A stretch of DNA of 64,000 nucleotides from assembly GCF_058153355.1 (NCBI RefSeq), contig NZ_JBLWLY010000002.1, one strand, 5' to 3'. The DNA is from a plasmid. A program made the translations under genes and the position numbers. Shown piece after piece: positions 13,148 to 49,288 of the stretch. Each line of letters begins with the position of its first letter. The first letter of the stretch is position 1. Under the pieces are notes generated by a model. It was not told the DNA's origin, did not search any database, and saw only the letters and a program-made list of their open reading frames with translations.

Positions 13148-13248
13148 TGTTAGCGCCAGTGATATAAGACGGTAATTCACCATTTGGATTGTCCGCTCCA
13201 CCCAACATGTTGTTTCCTTAAGGTTCTCACACCAGAAAGGACATCAAC

Positions 13249-15218
<1,970 letters not shown>

Positions 15219-15278
15219 CGAAAGTATCTTAGCGGGCATGAAAATGGCAAATAACGGTTAAAAATCGTGGCGTTGACA

Positions 15279-42478: not shown

Positions 42479-42739
42479 ATGTCGCAGATCGAAAATGCAG
42501 TAACTTCCTCACCGAAACGCATTTACAGAAAAGGTAATCCGTTAACCGGAGCCGAGAAACAACGCATATCTGTTTCCCGGAAAAAGGGGACACATAAAGC
42601 GATTAATGTTTTCATCCAGAGTGAACTCAAAGATGATTTGACACAGCTTTGTAAAGATTCGGGCTTAACTCAAAAAGAAATGATAGAGCACTGGATTTTG
42701 AAAGAAAAAGCTGCGGTGGATGATGCGAATAGAAGGTAA
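42479..42739 (+). CDS. copB: IncFII replication control protein CopB (RepA2)
   Basis: 86 aa MSQIENAVTSS..; close to my memory of R1/R100 CopB; directly upstream of repA1. Confidence 0.85.
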   Translation: MSQIENAVTSSPKRIYRKGNPLTGAEKQRISVSRKKGTHKAINVFIQSELKDDLTQLCKDSGLTQKEMIEHWILKEKAAVDDANRR

Positions 42740-42799: not shown

Positions 42800-42950
42800 T
42801 TTGTGGCTGGCCACGCCGTAAGGTGGCAGGGAACTGGTTCTGATGTGGATTTACAGGAGCCAGAAAAGCAAAAACCCCGATAATCTTCTTTAACTTTGGC
42901 GAGTGAGAAAGATTACCGGGGCCATCTAAAAACCGTATAGCCAACAATCA
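42800..42950 (-). ncRNA. copA: Expected location of the CopA antisense RNA / repA1 leader (tap) region of an IncFII replicon
   Basis: Placed by gene order between copB and repA1 from established IncFII organisation; exact ends not determined from sequence. Confidence 0.35.
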
Positions 42951-43040
42951 AGCTATGCGGGGAGTATAGTTATATGCCCGGAAAAGTTCAAGACTTCTTT
43001 CTGTGCTCACTCCTTCTGCGCATTGTAAGTGCAGGATGGT

Positions 43041-43898
43041 GTGACTAATCTTCAACAAACTTATTACCGCCAGGTAAAGAACCCGAATCCGGTGTTCACA
43101 CCCCGTGAAGGTGCCCGGACGCTTCCGTTCTGCGGGAAACTGATGGAAAAGGCGGTGGGCTTCACCTCCCGTTTTGATTTCGCCATTCATGTGGCACATG
43201 CCCGTTCGCTTGGTCTGCGTCGGCGCATGCCACCGGTACTACGTCGCCGGGCCATTGATGCGCTGCTGCAGGGGCTGTGTTTCCACTATGACCCGCTGGC
43301 CAACCGCGTTCAGTGCTCCATCACCACGCTGGCCATTGAGTGCGGACTGGCGACGGAGTCTGATGCCGGAGTACTCTCCATCACCCGAGCCACCCGTGCC
43401 CTGACCTCCCTGGCTGAGCTGGGGCTGATTACCTACCAGACGGAATATGACCCGCTTATCGGGTGCTACATTCCGACCGATATCACGTTCACACCAGCAC
43501 TGTTTGCCGCTCTCGATGTGTCTGAGGTGGCGGTGGCTTCCGCACGCCGCAGTCGTGTGGAATGGGAAAACAGACAGCGCAAGAAGCAGGGACTGGATAC
43601 CCTGGGTATGGATGAACTGATGGCGAAAGCCTGGCGTTTTGTGCGTGAGCGTTTCCGCAGTTACCAGACAGAGCTTAAGTCCCGTGGAATGAAGCGTGCC
43701 CGTGCGCGTCGTGATGCGGACAGGCAGCGTCAGGATATTGTCACCCTGGTGAAACGGCAACTGACGCGTGAAATCTCGGAAGGGCGCTTCACTGCCAGTC
43801 GTGAGGTGGTAAAACGTGAAGTGGAGCGTCGTGTGAAGGAGCGCATGATTCTGTCACGTAACCGTAATTACAGCCGGCTGGCCACAGCCTCCCCCTGA
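43041..43898 (+). CDS. repA1: IncFII replication initiator RepA1 (probable GTG start)
   Basis: ..[66 protein letters not shown].. matches RepA1 of R100/R1-type plasmids as I recall it. Confidence 0.88.
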
Positions 43899-43929
43899 AA
43901 GTGACCTTCTCTGAATAATCCGGCCCGCG

Positions 43930-44200
43930 CCGGAGGCATCCGCGCGCCTGAAGCCCGTCAGTACACAAAAAAGCAGCACCACATACAAAAAACAACCTCA
44001 CCATCCACCTTCCGGTGCATCCGGTTTCCCCTGTTTTTGATACAAAACACGTCTCACAGACGGGCAATTTTGCTTATCCACATTAAACTGCAAGGGACTT
44101 CCCCATAAGGTTACAACCGTTCATGTCATAAAGCGCCAGCCGCCAGCCTTACAGGGTGCAATGTATCTTTTAAACACCTGTTTATATCTCCTTTAAACTA
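43930..44200 (+). other. Probable oriR region of the IncFII replicon with a consensus DnaA box TTATCCACA (44074..44082)
   Basis: Perfect DnaA box immediately downstream of repA1 in AT-rich DNA. Confidence 0.5.
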
Positions 44201-44872
44201 CGTAATTACATTCATTTAAAAAGAAAGCCTATTCACTGCCTGTCCTGTGGACAGACAGATATGCACCTCCCACCGCAAGCGGCGGGCCCCGACCGAAGCC
44301 ATCTTAGTTACAACACTCAAACACAACCACCAGAAAAACCCAAGTCCAGCGCAGAACTGAAACCACAAAGCCCCTCCCTCATAACTGAAAAGCGCCGCCG
44401 CCCCGGCCCAAAGGGCCGGAACAGAGTCGCTTTTAATTATGAATGTTGTAACTAAGCATCATCATCGCTGTCAGTCTTCTGGCTGAAAGTCCTCAGTACA
44501 CGCTCGTAAGCGGCCCTCACGGCCCGCTAACGCGGAGATACGCCCCGACTTCGGGTAAACCCTCGTCGGGACCACTCCGACCGCGCACAGAAGCTCTCTC
44601 ATGGCTGAAAGCGGGTATGGTCTAGCAGGGCTGGGGATGGGTAAGGTGAAATCTATCAATCCGTACCGGCTTACGCCGGGCTTCGGCGGTTTTACTCCTG
44701 TGCCATATGCAACAACGGAGTGCCGCCTTCCATGCCGCTAACGCGGCATCAAAAAATCCCTCTTCTCCAGTGCCCCCCTCCGAACTCAGAGTGTATTTTC
44801 ATTTATTGATGAAATTTACTGTTTGCGCAATTTTCCTGTTTTAGTGTATTTTGTCATTCTGGAGGCTATAAT

Positions 44873-45184
44873 ATGTTTAATGTGATTACTCACCCGGCCG
44901 CACTGGATGAACTTCTGGAATTACCAGACAATCTGCGTGGTCGTATGACCAGACTGATTGAACGGCTGGAACAGGAAGGTAACAAAATGAAAATGCCTCA
45001 CAGCCGTGTAATTGGCGGAGGGCTTTTTGAACTGAGAGTCGGGGATAAAAATATCGCAAGGACACTGTACGCTTATGCAACGGGTAACGAAATCTATCTG
45101 CTGCATGCATTTGTGAAAAAAACGCAAAAGACACCAACGAAAGCTATTGAAATTGCCAGGATGCGTCTGAAGGAGATGAACTGA
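44873..45184 (+). CDS. Type II toxin, HigB/RelE-like (Gp49-like family)
   Basis: 103 aa; toxin-first gene order with a 1-bp overlap to an HTH antitoxin gene. Confidence 0.6.
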   Translation: MFNVITHPAALDELLELPDNLRGRMTRLIERLEQEGNKMKMPHSRVIGGGLFELRVGDKNIARTLYAYATGNEIYLLHAFVKKTQKTPTKAIEIARMRLKEMN

Positions 45185-45471
45185 TGAAAGTAAAAGGTGT
45201 TCCATTCAGCCAGGTAAAGCAAAAACTACTCAGTACTCCAGAAGCTGTCAAAGGGTATGAGGATGCTGACAAAGAACTGGAGATGGTGGAAATGTTATAC
45301 GAAATGAGAGAAAAAGCGGGATTAACAAAGTCAGCACTGGCCGAACGAATGGGGTTACGCCCGTCAGCCATCAGTCGCCTGGAAAGTAACCCTTTAGGGG
45401 CCAGCATGAAAACTTTGACAAAATATGCTCATGCCTGTGGCGCAACCATCGATATTCACGCTGTCTATTGA
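45184..45471 (+). CDS. HTH (XRE-family) antitoxin, HigA-like
   Basis: 95 aa with helix-turn-helix segment ..LTKSALAERMGLRPSAISRLE.. Confidence 0.6.
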   Translation: MKVKGVPFSQVKQKLLSTPEAVKGYEDADKELEMVEMLYEMREKAGLTKSALAERMGLRPSAISRLESNPLGASMKTLTKYAHACGATIDIHAVY

Positions 45472-45756
45472 GGGGGCCGCTTGGAATTCGGAAAATAAAC
45501 CACGTTAAGACTATTTTTTAGACAAATGACTTTCAGGAATCGCCAAGATGGCGGGATAACAGCGGTTTTGGTGTCCGAAATCGTACAATTCTGTACATCC
45601 ACGAAAGGGAATGTACGGAAGTAAGCCAGACGGTTATCGGACGGTAAGAACATTTCGTACAGCCTTTACGTTCAGTGAGTTAGCTGGCCTGGACGTAACC
45701 ACTCGTTAACTCAATTCTCTTAGCGTGGGAAAATTTCCGAATTCCAAGCGGACCCC
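45472..45756. mobile_element. Tn3-family-derived miniature inverted-repeat element (TIME-like), 285 bp, bounded by two 38-bp Tn3-type IRs
   Basis: GGGGGCCGCTTGGAATTCGGAAAATAAACCACGTTAAG at 45472..45509 and its near-perfect inverted copy at 45719..45756; no ORF inside; no 5-bp TSD. Confidence 0.6.
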
Positions 45757-46029
45757 TTTATCCTTGCCCCGCTGAATGAGGAAACGCTGTTCCGGGGGAT
45801 TATGCTGAACGTCTTCCGTTCACGGTACTGCTGGACGATGTGGCTGGGTGCGCTGATAACGTCGTTGTTGTTCGTCGCCGCGCACAGCCAGTATCAGAAC
45901 CTGCTGACCCTGGCAGAACTGTTCCTGGTGGGGGTGATTACATCAGCGGCCAGGATCAGAAGTGGTGGCCTGCTGCTGCCGGTATTGCTGCATATGGAAG
46001 CAACCGCGCTGGGTTTACTGTTTGGTTGA
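45757..46029 (+). pseudogene. CPBP-family (CAAX/Abi-like) membrane protease, 3' fragment
   Basis: ..EETLFRGIMLNVFRSRY..AAHSQY.. motifs; gene begins abruptly at the miniature element boundary. Confidence 0.55.
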
Positions 46030-46121
46030 CAGTTATATTTTTATTAAACATTGCGCGTTAAAGCCTGGTGTGTTTTTTTAGTGGATGTTATATTTAAATA
46101 TAACTTTTATGGAGGTGAAGA

Positions 46122-46379
46122 ATGCATACCACCCGACTGAAGAAGGTTGGCGGCTCAGTTATGCTGACCGTCCCACCGGCACTGCTGAACGCGCTGTCTC
46201 TGGGTACAGATAATGAAGTTGGCATGGTCATTGATAATGGCCGGCTGATTGTTGAGCCGCACAGACGCCAGCAATATTCACTGGCTGAGCTACTGGCACA
46301 GTGTGATCCGAATGCTGAAATATCAGCTGAAGAACGAGAATGGCTGGATGCACCGGCGACTGGTCAGGAGGAAATCTGA
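46122..46379 (+). CDS. pemI: PemI/Kis antitoxin (copy A)
   Basis: 85 aa MHTTRLKKVGGSVMLTVPPALLNALSLG..; matches R100 PemI as I recall it. Confidence 0.85.
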   Translation: MHTTRLKKVGGSVMLTVPPALLNALSLGTDNEVGMVIDNGRLIVEPHRRQQYSLAELLAQCDPNAEISAEEREWLDAPATGQEEI

Positions 46380-46380
46380 C

Positions 46381-46713
46381 GTGGAAAGAGGGGAAATCTG
46401 GCTTGTCTCGCTTGATCCTACCGCAGGTCATGAGCAGCAGGGAACGCGGCCGGTGCTGATTGTCACACCGGCGGCCTTTAATCGCGTGACCCGTCTGCCT
46501 GTTGTTGTGCCCGTAACCAGCGGAGGCAATTTTGCCCGCACTGCCGGCTTTGCGGTGTCGTTGGATGGTGTTGGCATACGTACCACAGGTGTTGTGCGTT
46601 GCGATCAACCCCGGACAATTGATATGAAAGCCCGGGGCGGAAAACGACTCGAACGGGTTCCGGAGGCTATCATGAACGAAGTTCTGGGCCGCCTGTCCAC
46701 TATTCTGACTTGA
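46381..46713 (+). CDS. pemK: PemK/Kid (MazF-family) toxin (copy A, GTG start)
   Basis: 110 aa (V)ERGEIWLVSLDPTAGHEQQGTRPVLIV..; start is GTG here but ATG in copy B. Confidence 0.85.
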   Translation: MERGEIWLVSLDPTAGHEQQGTRPVLIVTPAAFNRVTRLPVVVPVTSGGNFARTAGFAVSLDGVGIRTTGVVRCDQPRTIDMKARGGKRLERVPEAIMNEVLGRLSTILT

Positions 46714-46978
46714 ACATGGGGGGGTGCCCCTATTAAGTTGTCAAGCATGTTATGACCCCTGCGGGGTATAAAAAGTCCCGTCGCGCATCATGGCGAACAG
46801 AACGTCGCAGCGTCGTCTCGCCAGGGCGATAAGCGCCTGATTGTGTCGTTTTCCCTGACTCATTTTGCGGGTGTAGTAAGCCCTGGAGAGCGGATCCCTG
46901 AGCGCGGCGAAGGCCGACTGTCAACGCCACGATTTTTAACCGTTATTTGCCATTTTCATGCCCGCTAAGATACTTTCG

Positions 46979-48948
<1,970 letters not shown>

Positions 48949-49288
48949 GTTGATGTCCTTTCTGGTGTGGGAACCTTAAGGAAACAACATGTTGGGTGGA
49001 GCGGACAATCCAAATGGCGAATTACCGTCTTATATCACTGGCGCTGACACACAGCCAGTATCAGAACCTGCTGACACTGGCAGAACTGTTCCTGGTGGGG
49101 GTGATTACATCAGCGGCCAGGATCAGAAGTGGTGGCCTGCTGCTGCCGGTATTGCTGCATATGGAAGCAACCACGCTGGGTTTACTGTTTGGTTGAAAGT
49201 TATATTTTTATTAAACATTGAGCGTTAAAGCCTGGTGTGTTTTTTTAGTGGATGTTATATTTAAATATAACTTTTATGGAGGTGAAGA

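Follow-up and report, generated by a model that had tools for sequence, protein, structure and literature searches.

We analyzed a two-gene toxin-antitoxin (TA) locus at positions 44,873 to 45,471 of a 64,000-nucleotide stretch of plasmid DNA (contig NZ_JBLWLY010000002.1 of RefSeq assembly GCF_058153355.1), which is referred to below as the window. The window is a segment of a Shigella/enteroinvasive Escherichia coli (EIEC) invasion plasmid (pINV): it opens with mxi-spa genes, and an open reading frame (ORF) of 1102 aa at 24743-28051 matches annotated icsA. The locus encodes a toxin of the RelE superfamily followed by an XRE-type helix-turn-helix (HTH) antitoxin, and it lies beside an IncFII replicon. 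Coordinates of these and the surrounding features are collected in Table 1.

Gene layout and translation signals

A preliminary description of this DNA, made from its letters and ORFs, had reported a toxin-first pair with a 1-bp overlap next to the replication origin, and each of these points is borne out. Both ORFs run to full length, and many plasmids encode identical proteins. The toxin stop codon (TGA, 45182-45184) and the antitoxin start codon (ATG, 45184-45186) have one base in common (TGATG). By sequence reading, the first ATG is preceded by a Shine-Dalgarno motif, GGAGG, at 44861-44865 (7 nt upstream), and the second by GGAG at 45172-45175 (8 nt upstream). The one-base overlap and the presence of a separate Shine-Dalgarno motif before each gene lead us to infer co-transcription and translational coupling. 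The toxin gene also comes first in all nine related loci examined, with an overlap of either 1 or 4 nt. As to the origin, the toxin gene starts ~0.6 kb downstream of the IncFII oriR, inside a 1-kb insertion.

Table 1. Coordinates of the toxin-antitoxin pair and of neighboring features in the window
Feature	Positions	Strand	Basis and remarks
Toxin gene	44873-45184	+	ORF; 312 bp, 103 aa, ATG start
Antitoxin gene	45184-45471	+	ORF; 288 bp, 95 aa, ATG start
Putative operator dyad, TTTCAT-N6-ATGAAA	44797-44814		Alignment of nine upstream regions
Weak sigma-70-like promoter candidate, TTGCGC-18-TATTTT	44823-44852	+	Sequence reading and conservation
Segment homologous to N15-type phage-plasmids	44796-45471	+	blastn; 76% identity to N15, 83% to YDC107_1
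Insertion into the IncFII backbone	44750-45755 (or 45756)		Takes the place of 469 bp, among them the 5' portion of the CPBP (tir) gene
Miniature element, TIME-like	45472-45756		285 bp; Tn3-family-type terminal inverted repeats; abuts the antitoxin stop codon
RepB/CopB	42479-42739		Upstream of the pair
IncFII replicon	42866-44260	+	CopA RNA, repA, and oriR
CopA RNA	42866-42956	-	Rfam, 98.6 bits
repA	~43041-43898	+	IncFII_repA Pfam match and homology to annotated repA
oriR DnaA box, TTATCCACA	44074-44082		Sequence reading; followed by an AT-rich stretch to ~44230
pemI, copy 1	46122-46379	+	Compared with pL37-4 PemI
pemK, copy 1	46381-46713	+	Compared with pL37-4 PemK; GTG start
pemI, copy 2	49289-49546	+	Self-blast
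pemK, copy 2	49548-49880	+	Self-blast; ATG start

Family and fold of the two proteins

The toxin matches the Pfam family Gp49 (PF05973), which is named after gp49 of the phage-plasmid N15, over the whole length of the profile (positions 1-90 of 90; 99.3 bits against a cutoff of 23.9; E = 1.3e-28). At E <= 0.1 this was its sole Pfam match; neither the families of the Rts1 and E. coli K-12 HigB toxins nor ParE_toxin was retrieved. Neither the toxin nor the antitoxin reached the cutoff of any NCBIfam model. In a sequence search against solved structures, the toxin matched HigB of Streptococcus pneumoniae (6af3_A, E = 1e-5) and HigB1 of Mycobacterium tuberculosis. An AlphaFold (AF2) model built on an alignment of 64 homologs (predicted local distance difference test score [pLDDT], 90.6; predicted template modeling score [pTM], 0.84) has the element order beta-alpha-alpha-beta4-alpha, i.e., a RelE-type fold whose C-terminal helix is long, as is typical of Gp49-like toxins. 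The best Foldseek matches of this model were HigB 6af4 (E = 1e-6; template modeling [TM] score, 0.81) and ribosome-bound HigB1 (7nbu_Y; TM score, 0.77), followed by RelE and YoeB. Matches to HigB and RelE structures fell between E = 1e-6 and 1e-3, whereas ParE structures ranked below ~25 HigB/RelE/YoeB matches (E = 0.03 to 0.24; TM score, 0.44 to 0.57).

The residues implicated in catalysis were located with HMMER alignments and the HigB1 residue numbering of PMC9098466. HigB1 residues K58, E66, R68, N73, F93, K95, Q98, and K99 align with toxin residues R45, E53, R55, N60, F80, K82, Q85, and K86, respectively; HigB1 R77 aligns with R63, a loop position that hinges on a one-residue alignment shift. 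Within the 64-sequence alignment, E53, R63, F80, and K82 are invariant and R55 is present in at least 90% of the sequences, while K86 is the majority residue.

The antitoxin matches the Pfam families HTH_3 (46.6 bits, E = 3.6e-12) and HTH_31 (33.7 bits). It scores 23.8 bits against HTH_37 (PF13744), the HigA family, where the cutoff is 27; matches to HTH_37 were flagged as weak on several orthologs as well. The XRE-type HTH occupies residues ~36 to 90 and is preceded by a 35-residue N-terminal extension. With a profile built from 20 sequences, the top match in the PDB was S. pneumoniae HigA (6af3_B, E = 3.6e-6, residues 11-91), so that toxin and antitoxin match the two chains of one solved complex, S. 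pneumoniae HigBA.

The preliminary description had called the pair HigB/HigA-like, had named searches with RelE, ParE, and Gp49 profiles as a check, and had held that placement of the first gene in a non-toxin family would overturn the assignment. Profile, sequence, and fold searches instead place that gene in a toxin family of the RelE superfamily, and the HTH_3 and HigA matches agree with the XRE-type antitoxin that had been proposed. Gp49 is also the family to which the proteins called 'HigB' in S. pneumoniae and M. tuberculosis belong, as does N15 gp49. The HigBA systems of Rts1 (Proteus vulgaris) and E. coli K-12 are likewise toxin-first, with an HTH antitoxin, a toxin of the RelE superfamily, and a plasmid-stabilizing role, but their toxins belong to other Pfam families (PF05015 and PF09907). 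HigBA in the strict sense was rejected as a classification because the toxin had no match to the HigB Pfam families at E <= 0.1. Judged by its profile match and predicted fold, the toxin is a Gp49/Tad-type, RelE-fold protein that is HigBA-like and is not an Rts1 HigB.

S. pneumoniae HigBA (6AF3/6AF4) and M. tuberculosis HigB1 of the toxin-antitoxin-chaperone (TAC) system (7AWK and 7NBU), the best matches in both sequence and fold, share with the pair the long C-terminal helix and the catalytic E/R/R/K positions, although identity is ~25%. Unlike the M. tuberculosis TAC system, the pair has no SecB-like chaperone gene, and it resides in a gammaproteobacterial mobile-element context.

Kinship with the phage-plasmid N15

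A translated search of phage genomes showed that the toxin has 91.3% amino acid identity to N15 gp49 and 95% to its homolog in the Ravinvirus phages YDC107_1 and PhiR46_1. The antitoxin has 86.3% identity to N15 gp48 and 86 to 88% to Ravinvirus antitoxins. N15 genes 49 and 48 have the same lengths as the two genes described here (312 and 288 bp) and the same one-base overlap. At the DNA level, homology to N15-type phage-plasmids starts 77 bp upstream of the toxin ATG, at 44796, and covers the regulatory region and both genes. By these comparisons, the pair is a near-ortholog of the N15 gp49-gp48 module. The N15 genes are flanked by genes 50 and 47 of a linear prophage, whereas the present pair belongs to an IncFII virulence plasmid, at a distance of 0.6 kb from oriR, and its 3' flank, unlike that of N15, is replaced by a Tn3-type miniature element.

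Identity to N15 in the coding region is 75 to 79% in DNA, against 86 to 91% in protein. The ratio of nonsynonymous to synonymous substitution rates (dN/dS) for the toxin gene was 0.034 against N15 and 0.018 against YDC107_1; for the antitoxin gene it was 0.056 against YDC107_1, and the comparison with N15 was saturated at synonymous sites, which are at or near saturation in this set of comparisons generally. With dN/dS at 0.02 to 0.06 and DNA identity far below protein identity, both genes are under strong purifying selection and have been kept functional since their divergence from the phage-plasmid lineage.

To judge from the title of the report by Dziewit et al. (2007) and from papers that cite it (PMC2654960, PMC5906591, PMC2701414, and PMC3581621), N15 gp49-gp48 is a toxin-antitoxin stabilizing system homologous to tad-ata of the Paracoccus plasmid pAMI2. 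Three of these citing papers refer to the N15 locus as a validated, plasmid-stabilizing TA system of the Gp49 type (PMC5906591, PMC2701414, and PMC3581621).

Upstream regulatory region

N15 and the window have a homologous 77-bp upstream region, with a dyad in matching position and the same Shine-Dalgarno motif. The half-site of the dyad reads TTTCAT in the window and TTTCAC in N15, where the partner half-site is GTGAAA; the same position holds TTTCTC/GAGAAA in Xenorhabdus and TTAACT/AGTTAA in Yersinia. Across the nine related sequences, 87% of cells are paired, compared with 21 to 51% in controls with slid partner columns. Changes on both sides are seen in four of the seven pairs, and none of 500 shuffles reached the observed pairing. 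This covariation is suggestive of an operator, here termed putative, for a dimeric HTH antitoxin. The N15 GenBank record labels the dyad a terminator. We set this label aside: the stem is A+T-rich, and it lies in a divergent promoter region between N15 genes 50 and 49, for which an operator would be the better reading.

The promoter candidate lies downstream of the dyad, and alignment shows it conserved as TTG...TAT(A)TT in relatives. A perfect TATAAT at 44867-44872 was considered as the -10 element of the toxin gene and was rejected because it abuts the ATG.

Insertion into the IncFII backbone

Compared with the ordinary IncFII plasmids pL37-4 and pCROD1, backbone homology extends over 42900-44749 and resumes at 45756-46721, within the CPBP (tir) gene and through pemI-pemK. 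The canonical IncFII order is ori-CPBP(tir)-pemIK, and the insertion interrupts the ori-CPBP(tir) part. It has three components: 46 bp, the N15-type cassette (44796-45471), and a 285-bp element (45472-45756). The 46 bp (44750-44795) match neither the IncFII backbone nor N15 and are common to the copy of the cassette on an IncI-gamma/K plasmid.

The 285-bp element resembles the Tn3-derived inverted-repeat miniature elements (TIMEs) of PMC4133298. Its terminal inverted repeat (GGGGGCCGCTTGGAATTCGGAAAATAAACCACGTTAAG) spans 38 to 45 nt, with the 45-nt repeat 82% complementary, and the repeat motif occurs at just two places in the window, where chance would give none. The outer end of the repeat (GGGG) faces the antitoxin stop codon. 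The ORF list of the window has no ORF of at least 60 aa within the element, which is transposase-less, and no target duplication (5-bp direct repeats) was found at its junctions. A second, degenerate Tn3-type repeat at the left junction (~44737-44778) was considered and rejected, being in the wrong orientation and partly ordinary IncFII backbone. In PLSDB, the element occurs unannotated in 2150 plasmid records, nearly full length in 552 of them, and it is also found downstream of pemK in Citrobacter rodentium pCROD1.

On pRHB10-C19_3, an IncI-gamma/K plasmid, 52 bp of 3' flank remain attached to the cassette and are followed by an internally deleted copy of the element. Because this plasmid also has both components, differently joined, cassette and element have traveled together, with different junctions. 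Relative to the IncI-gamma/K copy, the toxin gene has 98.7% DNA identity and the antitoxin gene 91.9%, a difference suggestive of a recombination breakpoint within the cassette.

Tn3-family transposons are known to carry Gp49-HTH modules as passengers (PMC7157771). The Gp49-HTH_37 modules of Tn4662a, TnDsu1, TnPosp1, and others, together with Tad-Ata of pAMI2, resemble the pair in the Pfam family of the toxin, the toxin-first order, and the XRE-type antitoxin (PMC7157771 and PMC4133298). Tn3-family sequences are physically associated with the transposon modules and with the pair alike, but the former are internal to the transposon and adjoin res and tnpR, whereas the latter lies outside the transposase-less element. 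No resolvase or transposase ORF (and neither res nor tnpR) adjoins the pair in the ORF list of the window. We accordingly did not class the pair as a Tn3-family passenger TA in the sense of Lima-Mendez et al. (2020), as it falls outside the element bounded by inverted repeats.

Distribution and decay

The toxin is 100% identical to WP_000483533.1 (RefSeq product, RelE/ParE family toxin), and the antitoxin is 100% identical to WP_000865087.1 (helix-turn-helix transcriptional regulator). A literature search for the two accessions retrieved no paper that names them. The same proteins are encoded by EIEC plasmid pCFSAN029787_01 and Shigella boydii plasmid pSB4_227, where insertion sequence (IS) elements separate the cassette from the replicon. 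The full 1-kb segment is present in just 35 PLSDB records, mainly plasmids of EIEC, S. boydii, and Shigella dysenteriae. An intact repA-ori-TA arrangement with a spacing of 972 to 975 bp was found in an EIEC plasmid (VL7S7) and in a plasmid of E. coli O166:H15 that carries aap (dispersin).

The toxin-first unit also occurs in N15-like phage-plasmids of Klebsiella and Serratia, in the IncI-gamma/K plasmid, and in the chromosomes of Buttiauxella, Yersinia, and Xenorhabdus, where it sits between unrelated housekeeping genes. Judged from these genomic locations, a spread over phage-plasmids, plasmids, and chromosomes is how a mobile TA cassette behaves. In a set of 5426 complete E. coli genomes, the full cassette is present in 94, almost always on plasmids; ~210 further genomes have an antitoxin fragment alone, next to IS91, making this remnant about twice as common as the intact pair. 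Loss of the toxin with retention of antitoxin sequence is the pattern of decay that an active toxin predicts. One such fragment lies beside tsh on an E. coli plasmid from a turkey isolate (NZ_CP059918.1, positions 2524-2736) and equals positions 45158-45394 of the window.

By hit counts alone, the pair is absent from the pINV of Shigella flexneri and Shigella sonnei. The regions of these plasmids reached by icsA collinearity hold mxi-spa genes instead of the replicon, and their arrangement differs. The characterized maintenance TAs of pINV are VapBC/MvpAT, CcdAB, and GmvAT, with RelBE in S. sonnei (PMC10383432). These have the same presumed post-segregational role as the present pair, which is not among the TAs listed for the S. 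flexneri or S. sonnei plasmid, but they belong to unrelated protein families.

Proposed function and alternative explanations

Taken together, the locus is very probably an intact type II TA operon of the Gp49-HTH kind (Tad-Ata, HigBA-like) that derives from an N15-type gp49-gp48 module and was captured by a Shigella/EIEC-type virulence plasmid beside its IncFII origin. Its fold and conserved catalytic residues suggest that the 103-aa toxin would act as a ribosome-dependent mRNA endonuclease that halts translation. The 95-aa antitoxin, a homolog of HigA in 6AF3 and of N15 gp48, would bind and neutralize the toxin, and its dimer would use the conserved dyad ahead of the promoter to repress the operon. 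Under the general type II model, and in keeping with the reported behavior of N15, plasmid loss would entail loss of the labile antitoxin, leaving cells arrested or killed. Together with the two neighboring pemIK modules, the pair would then bias inheritance toward cells that keep the replicon. For tad-ata-type systems, the overexpressed toxin is reportedly bactericidal in E. coli, and the cassettes are said to have a second promoter before the antitoxin gene.

Several points weigh against this interpretation. A strict promoter scan upstream of the toxin gene called no sigma-70 site on the plus strand, and the published work that we found on pINV maintenance makes no mention of the pair. Two Gp49-type proteins of M. 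tuberculosis, HigB2 and HigB3, are nontoxic (PMC9098466); these are without catalytic residues that the toxin of the window has. Finally, deletion of the homologous pair s044/s045 of the element SXT did not raise loss of that element (PMC2654960), which argues by analogy that a functional TA system need not measurably stabilize its carrier.

The SXT result also favors an explanation that we consider unlikely, namely, that the pair is a functional TA without a measurable part in plasmid maintenance. It could be a selfish hitchhiker with the Tn3-type miniature element, or its payoff could lie in abortive-infection phage defense or in anti-addiction against an N15-type module. The cassette does move as a self-contained unit among phage-plasmids, IncFII and IncI-gamma/K plasmids, and chromosomes, with the miniature element alongside it in two junction configurations, and the two adjoining pemIK modules are potentially redundant with it. 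Cross-neutralization, as the anti-addiction version would need, is conceivable at the level of antitoxin identity seen with Ravinvirus modules. On the other hand, the repA-ori-TA spacing is retained in several lineages (EIEC, remnants in S. boydii and S. dysenteriae, and an enteroaggregative E. coli-type plasmid), the coding sequence shows strong purifying selection, and the N15 homolog is described as stabilizing in the title of Dziewit et al. (2007). As for defense, PADLOC matched the toxin in part to 'NsnC' and otherwise gave generic HTH matches, all of them weak, which we did not take as evidence of a defense role.

It is very improbable that the pair is an inactive relic, with phage-derived ORFs that are open by chance or through recent arrival and a toxin that is no longer toxic. 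The region has been heavily rearranged by IS elements, the neighboring CPBP gene is truncated, the promoter match is weak, and proteins such as HigB2 and HigB3 set a precedent for nontoxic members of the family. Such a relic would nevertheless have to be reconciled with full-length ORFs whose identical products recur in many plasmids, with the low dN/dS values, with conservation of all catalytic positions, and with decay in which the toxin is lost and the antitoxin partly retained. A still more remote proposition is that the toxin poisons DNA gyrase in the manner of ParE and is not an RNase. The fold shared across the RelE/ParE superfamily, together with the generic RefSeq product name, would allow this, but the ParE fold matches are weak next to those of HigB and RelE, the residues, basic and acidic, lining the HigB1 mRNA pocket are conserved, and the Pfam match is to Gp49 alone and not to ParE_toxin.

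N15-type (Ravinvirus) phage-plasmids, whose antitoxins are 86 to 88% identical to that of the pair, live in the same hosts as its plasmid. We regard it as improbable that the plasmid antitoxin neutralizes an N15-type toxin, and the reverse, such that the replicons interfere with each other's addiction. If this were true, the plasmid could be an anti-addiction element through which its host is able to lose N15-type prophages; alternatively, an N15-type prophage residing in the cell could disarm the stabilizer of the virulence plasmid. The altered half-site of the dyad (TTTCAT versus TTTCAC) could be a sign that the two regulatory circuits are partly insulated.

The kind of module is well known, its near relative in N15 is already characterized, and RefSeq already annotates the identical proteins; as an ordinary member of its family, it matters little beyond correct annotation. 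Loss of the invasion plasmid renders Shigella and EIEC avirulent, and studies of its maintenance in S. flexneri and S. sonnei have centered on VapBC, CcdAB, and GmvAT. In other pINV lineages the set beside the replicon is different, consisting of the N15-type Gp49-HTH pair and two pemIK copies, and this difference could underlie differences in plasmid stability between lineages. The locus also provides an example of a phage-plasmid addiction module that F-type virulence plasmids have captured at a fixed site next to oriR.

Neighboring pemIK modules and the wider window

The pair and the two pemIK copies, both of which are intact, place three type II modules within 44873-49880 (5.0 kb), in agreement with the density of addiction functions remarked upon in the preliminary description. 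The copies belong to two blocks (45883-46721 and 49050-49888), each made up of a 3' CPBP remnant and pemI-pemK, that are separated by an IS21 element at 46919-49049. The blocks are 98% identical, and all four ORFs are intact. The 17 differences between them in 839 bp argue for the joining of two related IncFII-type segments and against recent tandem duplication.

A second IS21 copy (13148-15278) is 99.8% identical to the first and inverted relative to it. Between the two copies lie ~31.6 kb containing icsA/virA, the IncFII replicon, and the TA pair, an arrangement that lends itself readily to inversion. The orientation of the icsA/virA block relative to spa40 is the reverse of that in pINV records of S. 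flexneri and S. sonnei. Beyond the second pemIK copy, an StbA/ParM-like ORF at 51350-52114 (minus strand) encodes 253 aa that match positions 79-157 of the N-terminal domain profile. Because of this length and the partial profile match, the partition ATPase may be truncated. The StbB/ParR-like gene beside it (50959-51318, minus strand) looks intact.

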